64,000 nucleotides of DNA from NCBI RefSeq assembly GCF_963506605.1, contig NC_083276.1, forward strand, positions 128,340,001-128,404,000, written 5' to 3'. Below, piece after piece: positions 29,759 to 35,836 of this stretch (position 1 is its first letter; each line of letters begins with the position of its first letter). A program made the translations under genes and the position numbers. The DNA is from Zootoca vivipara (taxonomy: Eukaryota). The notes beneath the pieces are model-generated. The model made no database searches. It saw only the letters and a list, made by a program, of their open reading frames with translations, and had not been told where the DNA came from.

Positions 29759-29965
29759 AGATAAGACTCAAGCATCTGATGAAGCAGAATGTAGCCCACA
29801 TAAGCTGATGCCACAATAAGTGTTTTGCTCTTTAAGATGCCATATTATACTTATTTCCTCCTTTCTGAACAGGTAGCTTCCGAGGCAGAATCTGGTGGCT
29901 CAAAGGCCTAGTACAACTAGGAAATAGTTAAGCTAAGCAAGCAAAATAAGTTATTTCCTTTTTCA

Positions 29966-30385
29966 TGTGGCTCTCAGGTTCTTTGGGGCTCCGTTGAGTT
30001 GTTTATGACTCAATTAGGAGCCTCTGATTATCGCCCGGCGCGCTTCCTCTCCGCTTCTCTGCTTCCGTAGAACCGGGCTGGCAGTAAAACACACACAGCA
30101 GAGTTCTTCTTCTCACACAGCGAAAGCTTGTATAGCCGTTGGATAAAAAGCCTCTTAAGAACACACAGAGTCCAAAGTGTTCTAATAACTACTTAAGTTT
30201 ATTCTAGAGAGAAAATAACAAACAACCTGGTGAGAGCGCAGACATCTTGCGACCGTCTCCCAGGCAGAAACGAAACCAACTGCAACATACAGAAACACTT
30301 CTGGTACATTCTGTAACATGATCTTCCTCAGTGGTCAGGTGCTACAGTACACAGTTAACTCTTTAGTTACTTGTTACTCATCACA
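29966..30385 (-). repeat. 3' LTR (420 bp)
   Basis: 29986-30385 is identical to 34537-34936; AATAAA on the minus strand at 30198-30203. Confidence 0.93.
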
Positions 30386-30397
30386 CCCCCTCTCACC
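30386..30397 (-). other. Polypurine tract
   Basis: Minus strand ggtgagaggggg immediately precedes TGTGA of the 3' LTR. Confidence 0.9.
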
Positions 30398-30426: not shown

Positions 30427-33400
30427 TTACCCCAAAACCAACCCTTCACAGAATTCCCCATGCCGTTGGAAACTCAAGGGTTTTGTGAACCCATCTGCTA
30501 GGTTCTTTTGGCTTGGACAATACCTCAACTTCACCAAGCCTACCTGTATGCTCTGACATACGTTTCGGAAGCGGATGTCTAAGTGTTTGGTTCTGGCCTT
30601 GAACTGTCCAGACTCCGCCAGTCTCAAAGATGGTTGATTGTCGCCCCAAACAGTGATGGGCTGGCTACAATCACCCCAGATTTCCTGGACCAAACATCTG
30701 TAGTACTCCAATTCAGTGCATGTCGCAGACAACGCACAGAATTCGGCTTCCGTGGAAGACATTGCTATTAGGCTTTGCCTGCGCGACCGCCAACCAATCA
30801 GGGCATTTCCAAACTTGACTACCAAACCAGTCACTGACTTCCTGTCTTCCTGATTGGCCCAATCAGCATCTGCAAAACAAGTGAGTTGTGGCTCACCTTG
30901 CGCTGACATCTCCAAACAATACTCTTTGGTCTCCTGCAAATACCTAAGCACTCTCTTAATGCCATTCCAAGCATGCACGCTAGGTTTCGATGCTTCTCTA
31001 CTGAGCAAATTGACTGCAAAAGCAATATCTGGTCTGCTCCATTGTGACAAATACAACAGACTCCCTAGCGCTGACTGAAACACTTCAGGACTCTCAAACG
31101 CTACTTTGTCCTTCACTTGTGACTCTTTCACAAAGTTTGTCTCCATGGGTGTTCTGACCCCTTTACAATCAGACATTCTGAACTTCTCAAGCAAATGTTC
31201 AATCTTGCCTTTCTGACTGAGCAAAAAACTTCCATCCTCAGTTCTGTCTATCTGCACACCTAGATAAACATTCACTGCACCTAGATTCTTGAGTTTGAAC
31301 CTCTTGCCTAGCTCTTTTGCAAACTTCTGCACTTGCATCTGGCTCTTTGCTAAGCAGATCAAGTCATCAACATAGACAAGCAACAGTTCTTGCTGTTCTC
31401 CTTCACCTCTGAGATACAGACAACTGTCAGCTAGACTCTTCCTGAAACCTAGGCTCTTCAAAACAGAATCAAGACATGAATTCCAATTTTTAGCTGATTG
31501 CTTCAGACCGTAGATCGACTTGTGCAGCTTCCACACCTGACCTGGCACGTCACTCTCAAACCCTGGAGGAGGTAACATGTACAACTCCTCCTGGAGGTCA
31601 GAGTTCAAATAAGCGGTGTCCACATCAAAGTGGTTGACCACTAGGCCTCTCTGCGCTGCAGTCGCTAAAAGCATCCTGAAAGATTCCGCTCTCGAAGTCG
31701 GACTAAAGACATCTGTATAGTGGATTCCTTTCTTCTGAGTAAAACCTCTAGCCACTAATCTAGCCTTGTACTGAGGCTCTCCAGTCACTGTGGGTTTCAG
31801 CCTGTAGACCCACCTACAACTGACTGCTTTCTTGCCTTCTGGCAACTGTGTTAGGCTATACACACCAAGAGATTGCATGGAGTTCAACTCTTTCTCCATT
31901 GCAACTTTCCACTTACTAGCTTCCTCCACTGACAACTGTTGCACCTCTTCAAAGCTTTCAGGCTCACACACTGCTAGGTTCGCCCATACACTGACAGCTG
32001 TAAACCTTTCAGGTGGTTTACCTTTCGTGGTGCGTTTTGAACGCCTTGGTCCCACATCTTCCCCCTCTAAATCCGAACTGCTTGTCTCTGACTGTGGCTC
32101 TCTCGGACTAGCAGCACTGTCAAGAGACCTACTACGCTTTGCAGCCCCCTCTGGGCTTGCTTTGGGTGAAGTGGGTGACCTACCACGTTTGCTGTACTTC
32201 CCAGGCTTGACCTGGGGTGAAGTCGGTGCGCTTCTGACTACTTGCTTCACTTCCCTAGGAGCTACACCACTTGGACCAGCTGCCTGACCTGGATCTGGTC
32301 CTGCAGCACCTGGAACTCCAGCATCAGCTACCTGAGTTTCCTCTTCCTGGTCAAAACCTGAAGACCAGTCAAGAAGAACTTCGGGGTTAGCATGAATGCG
32401 TCTCCAGCCCTCTTGTTCACAGAACGTAGCACTCCTGCTAATGTGAACGCGGGTTTGGTCCCCCTCTGCTGGTACAAACCTCCAAGCCTTTGAGTTTGGT
32501 TCGTAACCACAGAAGATCATTTTTCTGGATCTTGATCCTCCCTTTCTGCGCTTCTGCTTTGGAATTAGAACCCAAGCCTCACACCCAAAAGTTCTGAAAT
32601 AGTGCACCTTCGGAACTTTACCATACAACATGTAGTAGGGTGTGTTGTCCACAACTGAATTAAAAGCGCGGTTGGAACAAAAATTCACAAATTTATAGCA
32701 TTCCCCCCAAAACTTCTGGGGTAGTCCTGCATCAAACAACGTTGCCTCCACCAGTTCAGACAGCGTTCTAAATTTCCTTTCAGCTAAACCATTCTCCTGT
32801 GGACTAAAAGGAGCGGTTTTTCTGTGCCTAATTCCCTTGCTGCGGAAAAACCCTTGTAGTTCTGCACTCAAAAACTCTCCCGCTCTGTCACTCTGAAAAC
32901 ACTGGACAGTGACGGAGAACTGTAGTTCTACTTCGGCTACCCACTCTTTTATCACTTTGGCAGCCTCCCCCTTCTCTTTCAGTGTTATGACCCAGGAAAA
33001 ATGGCTGAAATCATCCAGAAGACACAAAACATATTTTGAACCACCTAAACTTAACGTTGACAAAGGCCCAGAAATATCCATGTGAACTAACTGAAATGGT
33101 TTTGTGCTCTTCCTCTCAGACCTAGGATAAGAGCATCTCTTCGTCTTCGCTTTCGCACATGCGCGGCATTGCAGGTGTTTTTGACATGGCTTGAACCTGC
33201 AACCTTTGACTAAATCAGGGGCTTTTTCCACATAAGGAAAAGACATGTGACAATATCTTCTGTGCCAAGCATGAATACAATCCTTATGGATGGCGCCCTC
33301 TGTGCCCTTTGGGGTATTGGCACTTTTAGCCTGAGCATCACCAGTGTTACTTCCACCTGCTTGCCCCCTCCCATCTAGGACAAACAGACCATCAGACCCA

Positions 33401-34275
33401 ACAGTAACACTTACCAGCTCAGCCCCATCTCTGGCAATTTTGCAAACACCATTGGCAAAACTTATTTCAAAGCCCTCACGCAATAAGCAAGACACACTTA
33501 AAAGAGCATTCTCCATGCCTGGTACAACATAAACATCAAGGTTAATGTCTAAGCATTGCATATAAAAAACACCCTTGCTTTTAATTGTTCCAGAAGAACC
33601 ATCAGCAAGATGCAGGCTTTTTTCATCTTCAAGTGGCCTGCAGTTCAGGATCTGTCCTGAAGGCGGTACAAGATGATGGCTGCTGCCTGAGTCGATAATA
33701 AAAGTGAAACTGTCCTGTCCTCTGTTTCGAACCGTTGCTAAGGCAGCAGAAAGACGGCTGACAGGCTTATCTGGAGTTTTCCCACGTCCTCTGCCTCGGC
33801 GCTGCTGGCTGGTCCCATGACCACGTCCGCTGGGTTGCCTGGCACCTGGCTGAGTGACCTTGGCTGCTTCCGGAGCTGGGCAGAATCTCGCTACGTGCCC
33901 CGGCTCCTGGCACCGAAAACAAAGCCTTGTTGCGCACGCACTCACAGTGGATTCCTCAGTGCTTTTTACTGCACCCCCACTGGCTTCTCTGCGCCCACGG
34001 CCCCCCTTCTCAGCCGATTCTTTCTGGCGTCTCAGTTCCTCATCACAGCTCCTGGCAATGGCACATAGAGCCTTATTGTCTTTCCTGGTTTCTGCTGCAA
34101 ACCTCTGTGCTTCAGCTGCTGAATTATCAGCGACAGGGGTTGGAGGATTTAACACACAAGTCCACAAATCCTTTCCTAGCAACCACATTCTGGCCCTTTC
34201 TCTCCACTCTGCATAGTTGTCGCCATTCAACCTCTGGAACGGCACGACAAATGACTCCTGTAGCTGCTCCGCCAT
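30427..34275 (-). CDS. Copia Gag-Pol polyprotein (1282 aa from the first ATG)
   Basis: aagATGg start at 34275. Motifs: LNGDNYAEW (Gag N-terminus), CFRCQEPGHVARFC (CCHC knuckle), FIIDSGSSHH (protease), WHRRYCH..CRAC (integrase zinc finger), HMDISG / SDRAGEF / NGLAER (D,D35E), YKARLVARGF, SIYGLKQS, YVDD (RT), ADADWA, SSTEAEF, KHLDIR, ADGFTK (RNase H). No stops or frameshifts. Confidence 0.97.
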   Translation of the reverse strand: MAEQLQESFVVPFQRLNGDNYAEWRERARMWLLGKDLWTCVLNPPTPVADNSAAEAQRFAAETRKDNKALCAIARSCDEELRRQKESAEKGGRGRREASGGAVKSTEESTVSACATRLCFRCQEPGHVARFCPAPEAAKVTQPGARQPSGRGHGTSQQRRGRGRGKTPDKPVSRLSAALATVRNRGQDSFTFIIDSGSSHHLVPPSGQILNCRPLEDEKSLHLADGSSGTIKSKGVFYMQCLDINLDVYVVPGMENALLSVSCLLREGFEISFANGVCKIARDGAELVSVTVGSDGLFVLDGRGQAGGSNTGDAQAKSANTPKGTEGAIHKDCIHAWHRRYCHMSFPYVEKAPDLVKGCRFKPCQKHLQCRACAKAKTKRCSYPRSERKSTKPFQLVHMDISGPLSTLSLGGSKYVLCLLDDFSHFSWVITLKEKGEAAKVIKEWVAEVELQFSVTVQCFQSDRAGEFLSAELQGFFRSKGIRHRKTAPFSPQENGLAERKFRTLSELVEATLFDAGLPQKFWGECYKFVNFCSNRAFNSVVDNTPYYMLYGKVPKVHYFRTFGCEAWVLIPKQKRRKGGSRSRKMIFCGYEPNSKAWRFVPAEGDQTRVHISRSATFCEQEGWRRIHANPEVLLDWSSGFDQEEETQVADAGVPGAAGPDPGQAAGPSGVAPREVKQVVRSAPTSPQVKPGKYSKRGRSPTSPKASPEGAAKRSRSLDSAASPREPQSETSSSDLEGEDVGPRRSKRTTKGKPPERFTAVSVWANLAVCEPESFEEVQQLSVEEASKWKVAMEKELNSMQSLGVYSLTQLPEGKKAVSCRWVYRLKPTVTGEPQYKARLVARGFTQKKGIHYTDVFSPTSRAESFRMLLATAAQRGLVVNHFDVDTAYLNSDLQEELYMLPPPGFESDVPGQVWKLHKSIYGLKQSAKNWNSCLDSVLKSLGFRKSLADSCLYLRGEGEQQELLLVYVDDLICLAKSQMQVQKFAKELGKRFKLKNLGAVNVYLGVQIDRTEDGSFLLSQKGKIEHLLEKFRMSDCKGVRTPMETNFVKESQVKDKVAFESPEVFQSALGSLLYLSQWSRPDIAFAVNLLSREASKPSVHAWNGIKRVLRYLQETKEYCLEMSAQGEPQLTCFADADWANQEDRKSVTGLVVKFGNALIGWRSRRQSLIAMSSTEAEFCALSATCTELEYYRCLVQEIWGDCSQPITVWGDNQPSLRLAESGQFKARTKHLDIRFRNVCQSIQVGLVKLRYCPSQKNLADGFTKPLSFQRHGEFCEGLVLG

Positions 34276-34508
34276 CTTGTCCACCCCCGGGCTCCGTGTC
34301 TGTGTACTCACTCAGAATAGCTCACGTTGCTCCTCCGGGTAGACTGCGGATCCCAGCCTTCTGGTACAGGGTCTTTCTGCTAGCGAGTGCATCTATTGAT
34401 TGCCGACTGCAAAACAACAGGTTTCTCCCAGCTAGCTCTTTACACCGGCTTTCTCCAAGGCTTTTACAGCTGCAATCACCTTTTATTGCTTTGGTGATTG
34501 ATTAGGTT

Positions 34509-34523
34509 CTATGACCCATAACC
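34509..34523 (-). other. Primer-binding site, half-tRNA-iMet type
   Basis: GGTTATGGGTCATAG directly after the 5' LTR; the first 9 nt match the GGTTATGGGCCCAG PBS of Drosophila copia-type elements. Confidence 0.8.
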
Positions 34524-34936
34524 TGTGACGGGTATAGGGCTCCGTTGAGTTGTTTATGACTCAATTAGGAGCCTCTGATTATCGCCCGGCGCGCTTCCTC
34601 TCCGCTTCTCTGCTTCCGTAGAACCGGGCTGGCAGTAAAACACACACAGCAGAGTTCTTCTTCTCACACAGCGAAAGCTTGTATAGCCGTTGGATAAAAA
34701 GCCTCTTAAGAACACACAGAGTCCAAAGTGTTCTAATAACTACTTAAGTTTATTCTAGAGAGAAAATAACAAACAACCTGGTGAGAGCGCAGACATCTTG
34801 CGACCGTCTCCCAGGCAGAAACGAAACCAACTGCAACATACAGAAACACTTCTGGTACATTCTGTAACATGATCTTCCTCAGTGGTCAGGTGCTACAGTA
34901 CACAGTTAACTCTTTAGTTACTTGTTACTCATCACA
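34524..34936 (-). repeat. 5' LTR (413 bp)
   Basis: Perfect TGTGA...TCACA terminal inverted repeat; abuts the PBS. Confidence 0.95.
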
Positions 34937-35479
34937 TTTCAGACCCTGACACTAGTAAGTCACCAGGCAGTGGCTGCAGTTTTATTGGTTGTAAAATTGA
35001 GCTGGCAGCACCCTTGCAGAAACCCTCTGCTGGTCCGCCGGCCAGAAGAATTGTGGGAGAGTCATAGTGACAGGTTACCAAACTCCACACAACATAATGG
35101 TCACTTCAGTTCATACAGAGTCTAGTTTTAGTACATCTTGTTTCCTTCTGCCTTGCCATATCTGTACTTTCCAAGTTTCCACATTTTAAATTATAGTGAT
35201 TTGTCATTTTCTGGCACACTCCTTCACTTCCAAGTTGAAATGTCCAATAGTAAAATGCCCAGTGGTAATAATTTAAGCACTGCCCATGGTTACACTGATT
35301 GGCTAGTACTACTGGCAATTGTCATGGTCAGATTCTATACAGGTCCCTGCCTTTCAATATCCCCATTGAGAGATAGTACTACTATTTTTACTTTCCTTTG
35401 GATTGGTACCGTGCCCCAGACAAAGATTCATCTGTGACAACCCAAAGCATTCAACTACGGCTAGGCTTGTCCTAGAGGT

Positions 35480-35836
35480 CTAAACCACGGAGCCTCTTGG
35501 GCTTGCTGATCAGAAGGTTGGCGGTTCGAATTTGTGTGATGGGGTGAGCTCCTGTTGTTCTGTCCCAGCTCCTGCCAACCTAGCAGTTCGAAAACACAGC
35601 AGTGCAAGTAGATAAACAGGTAGCACTGCAGAGGGAAGGTAAATGGCATTTCTGTGCGCTATGGTTTCTATCATGGTGTTCCGTTGCTCCAGAAGCGGTT
35701 TAGTTATGCTGCCCACATGACCTGGAAAGCTGTCTGTGGACAAACGCTGGCTCCCTCGGCCTAAAAGCGAGATGAGCACCGCAACCCCATAGTTGCATTT
35801 GACTGGACTTAACAGTCTAGGGGTCCTTTACTTTTT
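35480..35836 (+). mobile_element. Sauria SINE, more diverged subfamily
   Basis: ctaaaccacggagcc...gctgatcagaaggttggcggttcgaat...ctcctgccaacctagcagttcgaaa...ggggtcctttactttt. Confidence 0.85.

Follow-up and report, generated by a model that had tools for sequence, protein, structure and literature searches.

Layout of the element

The DNA analysed here, termed the window throughout, is a stretch of 64,000 nt from the forward strand of Zootoca vivipara contig NC_083276.1 (positions 128,340,001-128,404,000, assembly GCF_963506605.1). It harbours a complete LTR retrotransposon on the minus strand, which runs from window position 34936 to 29966 and is bounded by a 5-bp target-site duplication (34937..34941 on the 5' side and 29961..29965, intact, on the 3' side). 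All other parts given below lie on the minus strand. The element bears the hallmarks of Ty1/copia retrotransposons, namely TG...CA LTRs, a primer-binding site, a polypurine tract and the 5-bp target duplication. The 5' LTR (34524..34936, 413 bp, TG...CA) has the family-typical U5 end and is directly followed by a primer-binding-site-like sequence, GGTTATGGG (34515..34523), which probably matches the half-tRNA-Met primer of Drosophila copia. The polypurine tract (30386..30395) precedes the 3' LTR (29966..30385, 420 bp). The two LTR bodies (34537-34936 and 29986-30385) match at all 400 bp (100% identity), in agreement with the preliminary description of this locus. The final 20 nt of the 3' LTR (29966-29985) are unlike the family end and unique in the genome, but still end in CA. 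A second LTR subfamily as the donor of this end was rejected, as the genome holds no other match, either exact or with 3 mismatches.

A single Gag-Pol ORF extends from 34275 to 30427 and encodes 1282 amino acids without a stop, compared with 1396 residues in full-length sister copies. It reads LNGDNYAEW...KDNKALCAIARSCDEELRR, and Pfam returned the copia order; the ORF as a whole reads Gag-PR-IN-RT-RH, with a reverse transcriptase of the RVT_2 type. The retained Gag N-terminus (34045..34275) covers residues 1-77, which correspond to the first three helices of the capsid N-domain in a model of the full protein. The CCHC zinc knuckle of the nucleocapsid is kept at residues 118-133 (33877..33924), confirming the short distance from the start codon to the knuckle noticed in the preliminary description. 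Downstream are the protease region (33469..33702; Pfam Pol_BBD at residues 192-269, IDSG motif), the integrase (32404..33294; gag_pre-integrs, rve and SH3) and the reverse transcriptase (31141..31863; RVT_2, YVDD). The RNase H region (30430..30900, approximate boundaries) has no listed Pfam match and is putatively assigned by its motifs. Copia elements of squamates are reported to belong to the Mtanga clade (PMC11889832).

The deletion and the lost part of the capsid

Aligned with the full-length copy L059 (1396 residues), the window copy shows one gap of 342 nt, or 114 codons, at ORF nt 231-573. The junction lies at 34045/34044 and slides over a 3-nt microhomology to 34042/34041 (34041..34045); its ends are not of the GT-AG type. 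The clean in-frame loss of the capsid core beside an intact Pol, as first proposed from the sequence, is thereby borne out by the gap against L059 and the open ORF of 1282 residues. The deletion had been placed near 34045-34055; it is indeed in frame, with its junction at the edge of that range.

In the capsid part of the window ORF, Pfam returned only an N-terminal Retrotran_gag_3/DUF4219 piece (residues 15-38, below cut-off). Retrotran_gag_2, the domain by which a complete Gag could be recognized, was not found by Pfam in the window ORF, and it covers residues 29-201 of the full-length sister L031 (E 5e-28). The two-domain copia capsid is therefore absent from the window copy and present in its full-length sisters.

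Residues 16-200 of the full Gag align to the solved Drosophila Copia capsid (E 2e-10). We modelled the full Gag from 68 sequences (mean pLDDT 90). The model predicts five helices up to residue 102 and another five from residue 107, and it superposes on the Drosophila Copia capsid with a Z score of 15.1 (rmsd 4.9, 183 aligned). Residues 106-199 of the model superpose on the Ty1 p22 CA-CTD with a Z score of 11.6 (rmsd 2.3, 92 aligned). According to this model, the window copy lacks residues 78-191, comprising the last two helices of the N-domain and nearly the whole C-domain. It keeps the start codon, the first three helices, the linker, the knuckle, the protease and all pol motifs.

Recurrent in-frame capsid deletions in the family

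A genome search with the gag region found seven places matching across the junction and many matching in two pieces. Exact anchors occurred at 96 places for the sequence next to the knuckle linker, 137 for the reverse transcriptase, 126 for the gag start and 113 for the integrase; 100 of the 137 reverse transcriptase matches and 100 of the 126 gag-start matches were taken. A word-indexed protein search gave 2 distant matches only. We collected 135 loci, of which 126 could be classified over gag and nine lacked that part or were too rearranged; the counts are lower bounds.

An in-frame capsid deletion is present in 44 of the 126 classified loci, about a third of the family. Seven loci carry the 342-nt deletion, 31 a 276-nt deletion, three a 219-nt deletion and three a 210-nt deletion, the last each with a different junction. 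The 31 loci of the 276-nt class represent 29 independent insertions, because the pairs L122/L166 and L046/L047 are DNA-level duplicates. The remaining 82 loci are without an in-frame capsid deletion; this group includes single out-of-frame deletions of 217 and 202 nt and some partial copies. All six in-frame deletions overlap at ORF nt 362-523, inside the C-domain. They remove residues 78-191, 98-189, 121-193 and about 105-178, respectively, by class, and every class loses the core of the C-domain because this domain spans residues 106-199. The 276-nt class is predicted from the model to retain almost all of the capsid N-domain. Microhomologies of 3-8 nt occur at all multi-copy junctions, and the 276-nt joint has GT..GC ends and six shared letters. 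We rejected splicing as the origin of the deletions, since the missing segments are bounded by microhomologies instead of GT-AG.

The seven 342-nt copies are distributed over three contigs, and the flanks and the 5-bp target duplication are different for every copy. A SNP 8 nt from the junction (34052..34052, M75R) is private to this class, being present in 7/7 deleted copies and 0/96 other young copies. Separate flanks together with a linked private SNP indicate one origin followed by repeated retrotransposition. Of the possibilities that the preliminary description had laid out, the data thus favour a deletion common to several independent insertions alongside copies with full Gag, which is neither unique to the locus nor family-wide.

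The ORF is intact in 5/7 copies of the 342-nt class, 18/31 of the 276-nt class, 3/3 of the 219-nt class and 2/3 of the 210-nt deletions, and in 30/82 loci without such a deletion. Intact ORFs are more frequent in the multi-copy deleted classes than in the rest (26/41 vs 30/82, P=0.007), and capsid-deleted copies account for 28 of the 58 intact ORFs of the family. Each LTR pair differs on average by 0.59 substitutions in the multi-copy deleted classes and by 1.31 in the rest (P=0.01); for private differences, the values are 0.38 and 1.04 (P=0.01). By this measure, the multi-copy deleted classes inserted more recently than the other loci, and deleted forms are over-represented among the youngest insertions. 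Zero LTR divergence was found in 27 of the 72 full-length copies. Helpers also exist, as the 30 loci without an in-frame deletion that carry an intact ORF demonstrate. The defect has thus been propagated to numerous separate insertions, and autonomous partners are present in the same genome.

The deletion is an allele and not a subfamily

We defined a young set of 103 copies within 2.5% of the reference, obtained from 116 after the removal of 10 partial or rearranged loci. For 78 common SNPs in these copies, r2 averages 0.23 for pairs less than 15 nt apart, falls to 0.085 at 15-30 nt and is about 0.04 at distances above 120 nt, and all four gametes are found in 93-98% of the SNP pairs more than 15 nt apart. 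Helper and deleted copies are about 98.5% alike. The preliminary description had suggested a capsid-parasitic subfamily transposing in trans. Movement in trans is likely, but the deleted copies do not behave as a subfamily: the pol distance among the seven 342-nt copies is 0.0147, compared with 0.0150 for random young sets (P=0.46), and other deletions, above all the 276-nt one, are commoner. The nearest neighbour of a 342-nt copy is never another 342-nt copy. In pol, the distance among the 276-nt copies is slightly smaller (0.0126), but 11 of the 29 have a full copy as their nearest neighbour. Of two diagnostic alleles of this class, the one at 23 nt from the junction persists in only 22/29 copies and the one at 55 nt in only 16/29.

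Between 342-nt copies, the LTRs differ by 1-12 substitutions, whereas the two LTRs of one copy are identical in 4/7 cases. Own LTRs that mostly match and LTRs that differ between copies imply that the mixing took place before insertion. Within-copy LTR differences fall on family-polymorphic sites in 22 of 93 cases. Mixing before insertion would fit template switching between two co-packaged RNAs, and it agrees with the mosaics described for Ty1 and ONSEN. We found no support for drive or a hotspot of recombination at the 3' breakpoint, as linkage is equally short along the whole element; the only feature in a folding scan was a GC step near ORF nt 540. The deletion is therefore an allele that recombines with helper RNAs, without a subfamily or a pol lineage of its own. 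With recombination this close to free, the intact pol of a deleted copy may come fresh from a helper and is, by itself, not evidence of selection.

Apparent constraint on the reading frame

Free recombination allows alleles to be judged one by one. Among the 103 young copies, all 38 frameshift alleles are singletons, and the 22 stop alleles occur once in 20 cases and twice in two, so that none of the 60 null alleles reaches three copies. Synonymous alleles do so in 160 of 441 cases (P=3e-11 against stop and frameshift alleles combined), a contrast that the frequency test overstates because many nulls arose after insertion and the shared synonymous alleles include old variation. Singletons and doubletons number 58:2 for null alleles and 209:72 for synonymous ones (P=3e-5). 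Three of the six in-frame capsid deletions reach three or more copies (P=4e-4 against the null alleles), and both in-frame pol deletions are singletons. Within the gag deletions alone, the contrast is weak, with 3 multi-copy to 3 single in frame and 0 to 6 out of frame (one-sided P=0.09); as the three 210-nt events have an offset in common, they are not independent for frame.

In pol, missense alleles are likewise held at low frequency, with 424 singletons and 66 doubletons against 209:72 for synonymous alleles (P=4e-5). For shared variation, pN/pS is 0.16-0.19 in the capsid and 0.04-0.14 in the enzymes, a difference with P=0.29. Capsid missense changes are accordingly purged about as strongly as those in the enzymes, which would not be expected of a capsid acting as a pure public good. 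All of this purging could also result, without any cis effect, from selection among cells in which few loci are active. Continuity of the ORF seems to matter to the RNA carrying it, whether via RNA decay, a cis-acting Gag-Pol or selection at the level of cells.

Transcripts and splice sites

The family is transcribed: reads of the raw RNA runs X23 and X24 map to a full-length copy (574 and 257 reads, respectively), mostly in sense. No junction reads were reported from these two runs, in which the low cover of gag is uninterpretable for deleted transcripts. The 276-nt junction is present in contigs of 5/8 independent runs. The 342-nt junction is not among the joints listed for the eight runs; contigs lose rare forms, so the missing joint is no proof of absence.

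In two probable RNA runs (X1 and X10), contigs leave the element exactly at a splice-donor-like site in the leader (34306..34311). A contig of one probable RNA run leaves it at another donor-like site right after the protease (33409..33414), conserved across full as well as deleted copies and a candidate donor for a subgenomic Gag-PR RNA. No spliced Gag-PR joint or acceptor was seen in the run contigs. A loose end near the end of the ORF in X10 lies off the donor-like site there and was dropped. By analogy with Drosophila copia, a spliced Gag-PR RNA is plausible for the Zootoca family, with this site as the candidate donor.

Capsid-deleted alleles as probable users of helper shells

We observed a deletion that preserves the frame, occurs in multiple copies at independent target sites and sits on mosaic haplotypes, in a family where stop and frameshift alleles do not spread. 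The explanation that we prefer, with a probability of roughly two in three, is that the deleted copies are capsid-cheater alleles: their RNA would travel in shells made by full-length copies, and translation of their own ORF would probably still be required. The 342-nt deletion would have arisen once, by a template jump of the reverse transcriptase at the short microhomology. The deleted RNA would then share a particle with a second RNA from the family, and the reverse transcriptase, by changing templates again and again, would exchange everything except the junction and the nearest bases. Packaging in helper particles would agree with the genetic signs of co-packaging, and mobilisation in trans is the likely route for the deleted copies. 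Full-length copies would supply the shell in trans, probably through splicing to a Gag-protease RNA of the kind described for Drosophila copia.

The reading frame could be maintained in two ways, which may act together. RNA with a premature stop might be lost to nonsense-mediated decay. The shortened Gag-Pol, with its nucleocapsid and all enzymes, might also deliver its encoding RNA together with Pol to the particle, a mode of loading in cis modelled on what is reported for the IAP 1-delta-1 fusion. As a counterpoint, Ty1 is reported to be without cis preference, and a mini-Ty1 without gene products is reported to move in trans. Loss of the whole C-domain may be better tolerated than point changes, because a protein outside the lattice cannot spoil it. 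The deletions might conceivably have an advantage over neutrality. A tentative extension, which we regard as possible but would not favour, is that two interbreeding genome types exist, with full copies as suppliers of the shell and C-domain-deleted alleles, which arose repeatedly, as specialised donors of genome plus Pol, their shortened Gag-Pol bringing its encoding RNA into helper particles.

Other accounts of the deleted copies

The deleted copies could instead be neutral passengers, that is, template-switch errors at microhomologies that rely on complementation in trans and became numerous by drift, starting from one or two active loci, their frame being due to chance or to the avoidance of decay and their short protein being inert. 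The microhomologies of 3-8 nt at all multi-copy junctions, the recurrence of the 210-nt offset on three occasions and the P=0.09 of the gag-only frame test all suit this account. We nevertheless consider it unlikely, since each of the three multi-copy classes preserves the frame and affects one and the same domain, large deletions in pol remain singletons whether in frame or not, the youngest insertions contain an excess of deleted classes, and RNA decay alone does not explain the rarity of pol missense alleles. Escape from a host repressor appears quite improbable. In that case, the deletions would remove a DNA or RNA target, such as a zinc-finger site or a small-RNA target, or a capsid surface recognised by a host factor, with loss of the shell as the price. 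The segment common to all six in-frame deletions (ORF nt 362-523) could hold such a target, and when young full copies are compared in 45-nt windows along the whole ORF, variability peaks at nt 495-540 (0.080 vs a median of 0.014, rank 1/277), with several residues at codons 175 and 179; this peak may, however, be a weakly constrained loop on old haplotype blocks. A heterochromatin-inducing gag segment has been described for IAP. In X1, which is probably RNA, contig depth is 27 for the 276-nt junction and 13 for the full form, the reverse of the order in three DNA-like runs, but contig depth is a poor measure and X10 shows the full form only. Repressor escape can also act together with the use of helper shells.

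Restriction of the family by the shortened Gag, as by p22/p18 of Ty1, was raised in the preliminary description as a loose analogy with Ty1 copy-number control, and we regard it as very improbable. The donor-like site after the protease is kept in deleted copies, so that a short Gag-PR with N-domain helices and nucleocapsid could be produced and might bind RNA, and the 276-nt class keeps nearly the whole N-domain. The analogy itself is not supported, because residues 106-199, which are removed by all deletions and superpose on the p22 CA-CTD, are the very domain that p22 uses; p18 is reported to be the capsid C-domain, acting via its dimer interface. Interference of the truncated Gag with its own family also disagrees with the continued insertion of deleted copies, their enrichment among the youngest insertions and the full-length copies of zero LTR divergence (27/72) beside them. 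We give almost no credence to the idea that the deleted copies move autonomously, with the short Gag serving as a naturally minimal capsid. Their intact ORFs (5/7, 18/31 and 3/3) would allow it, but the family norm is a two-domain capsid like that of Drosophila Copia, and the deleted classes differ in their end points and exchange alleles with full copies throughout. Collapse in the assembly or gene conversion in the genome as the source of the shared junction and the mosaics is likewise extremely unlikely. The lack of the 342-nt junction among the joints listed for eight public runs and the two duplicated 276-nt pairs could be read in that direction. Against it, flanks and target duplications differ among the seven loci on three contigs, the two LTRs of one copy are much more alike than the LTRs of different copies, and the 276-nt junction is found in five independent runs.

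Comparison with other defective retrotransposons

Saito et al. are said to have given the primary description of the mouse IAP 1-delta-1 element in 2008. IAP 1-delta-1 is described as non-autonomous and over-represented among new insertions, with an in-frame fusion ORF that is reported to help in cis (PMC6466679, PMC7411935). The Zootoca copia element resembles it in being internally deleted with an in-frame, single fused ORF. IAP is, however, an endogenous retrovirus that loses 1.9 kb of gag and pol and needs both in trans (PMC6466679, PMC7411935), whereas the Zootoca element loses the capsid C-domain only, keeps the nucleocapsid and the enzymes, and has done so several times.

Barley BARE2 is a copia element without a working Gag, packaged in BARE1 particles, that may still translate pol (PMC3735527), and rice Tos17 is an active copia element with a long pol ORF and no capsid (PMC3977881). 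As in BARE2 and Tos17, the deleted Zootoca copies have lost capsid coding and kept the pol ORF and the cis signals. BARE2 lost the start codon of gag through an 8-bp deletion, is without splice signals and forms a distinct subfamily (PMC3735527); the Zootoca element, in contrast, keeps the start codon, the N-terminus, the nucleocapsid and the candidate donor, and is an allele without a pol lineage. Tos17 lacks the whole of gag, the knuckle too, and at the DNA level it is only 57% alike to the helper proposed for it (PMC3977881), unlike the Zootoca helper and cheater copies, which are about 98.5% alike and recombining.

In the Ty1 and ONSEN/COPIA78 clans, new insertions are mosaics drawn from several members, defective ones among them, and heterologous LTR pairs occur (PMC6894440). 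The defective members described there are aged and randomly broken (PMC6894440), whereas the Zootoca deletions are domain-precise and together reach a third of the family. The Ty1 p22/p18 proteins are likewise truncated Gag products of a Ty1/copia element, in which the capsid C-domain exerts copy-number control (PMC8458377). The full Zootoca Gag shares the C-domain fold, but the deleted forms are without this domain. Drosophila copia forms its shell from a spliced Gag-PR RNA of a single ORF (bioRxiv 10.1101/2024.02.21.581285; PDB 8VVW, 8S41). The Zootoca family shares the capsid fold and the single ORF, and the position of its candidate donor would fit that used for the spliced Gag-PR isoform of Drosophila. 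The available part of the Drosophila work describes no capsid-deleted, spreading form of copia (bioRxiv 10.1101/2024.02.21.581285), and we found no description of spreading in-frame capsid deletions in vertebrate copia in the literature covered, which included only a minority of subscription papers.

Implications for the evolution of non-autonomous elements

Copia elements that are without Gag but have a usable pol (BARE2, Tos17) and an in-frame deleted form that needs to be translated in cis (IAP 1-delta-1) are already known. The Zootoca element differs in the precise and repeated removal of one capsid domain, with nucleocapsid and enzymes kept, and in being an allele without a lineage of its own. 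Cis-acting and shared functions of retrotransposons are usually tested construct by construct, and a young recombining family offers a natural experiment. If two genome types do interbreed in this family, the capsid would be a shareable good and the continuity of the ORF a private good, both read from a single genome. If confirmed, our findings would carry the warning that the intact pol of a defective copy may reflect recombination instead of selection on that copy. They would extend the rule of translation in cis from IAP 1-delta-1 to vertebrate copia, and they would mean that non-autonomous LTR elements start as alleles within their parent family, before any subfamily exists.

LTR Termini and Leader of the Copia Copies

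The copia element on the minus strand of the window (34936-29966) carries an atypical 3' LTR terminus, in which 20 nt (29966-29985) replace the 13-nt end typical of the family. A search of the animal's own genome found no other occurrence of this 20-nt terminus. Despite the atypical sequence, the LTR ends in CA with the correct target duplication directly beyond it, and the terminus is likely an aberrant cDNA end that was still accepted by the integrase. Among the sister copies, three of those with the 342-nt in-frame capsid deletion (L124, L125, and L126) show differences within their LTR pairs mainly at sites that are polymorphic in the family, the pattern that strand transfer between two distinct RNAs, rather than age, would produce.

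Directly 3' of the 5' LTR (window 34490-34523), the leader varies in length from 245 to 310 nt among the loci L031-L126 due to nested repeats in which ACA precedes a PBS-like motif. It is the more diverged copies that carry the longer leaders, and every common leader length occurs in copies with a capsid deletion and in full copies alike.

Variation and Transcripts of the Coding Region

The most variable window of the Gag-Pol ORF, as seen in the full-length copy L059 and its sister copies, is located at nt 495-540, where the capsid C-domain ends (codons 175-179); at least 13 peptide variants occur there across 14 residues. In runs that are probably RNA, assembled contigs depart from the element at L031:1180 and L031:2420 (window 34311 and 33414), the donor-like sites in the leader and downstream of the protease, and then run into other sequence, which suggests splicing from the element to host exons.

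Genomic Distribution of the Family

Among the matches listed, about 20 family copies lie clustered at 47-64 Mb of contig G000:C9, most of the more diverged ones among them; this stretch may recombine little or be sex-linked. Some copies are duplicates at the DNA level: L046 and L047 on C2 form a tandem pair with a common middle LTR and a single target duplication, and L122 and L166 on C18, whose flanks are identical, are a segmental duplicate. The copies L132, L133, L141, L157, L160, L161, and L163 are missing the 5' part, start within pol, and retain the 3' LTR; they were left out of the gag classification. The window also contains a SINE-like repeat at 35460-35830, probably of a kind found in squamate genomes, which together with the chromosome-scale 1.44-Gb assembly suggests that the host is a lizard.

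The 276-nt deletion junction is also present in the public sequencing run X13, whose organism label differs from that of most runs with the junction. The 276-nt allele may therefore be older than a species split, or one species may have been deposited under differing labels.
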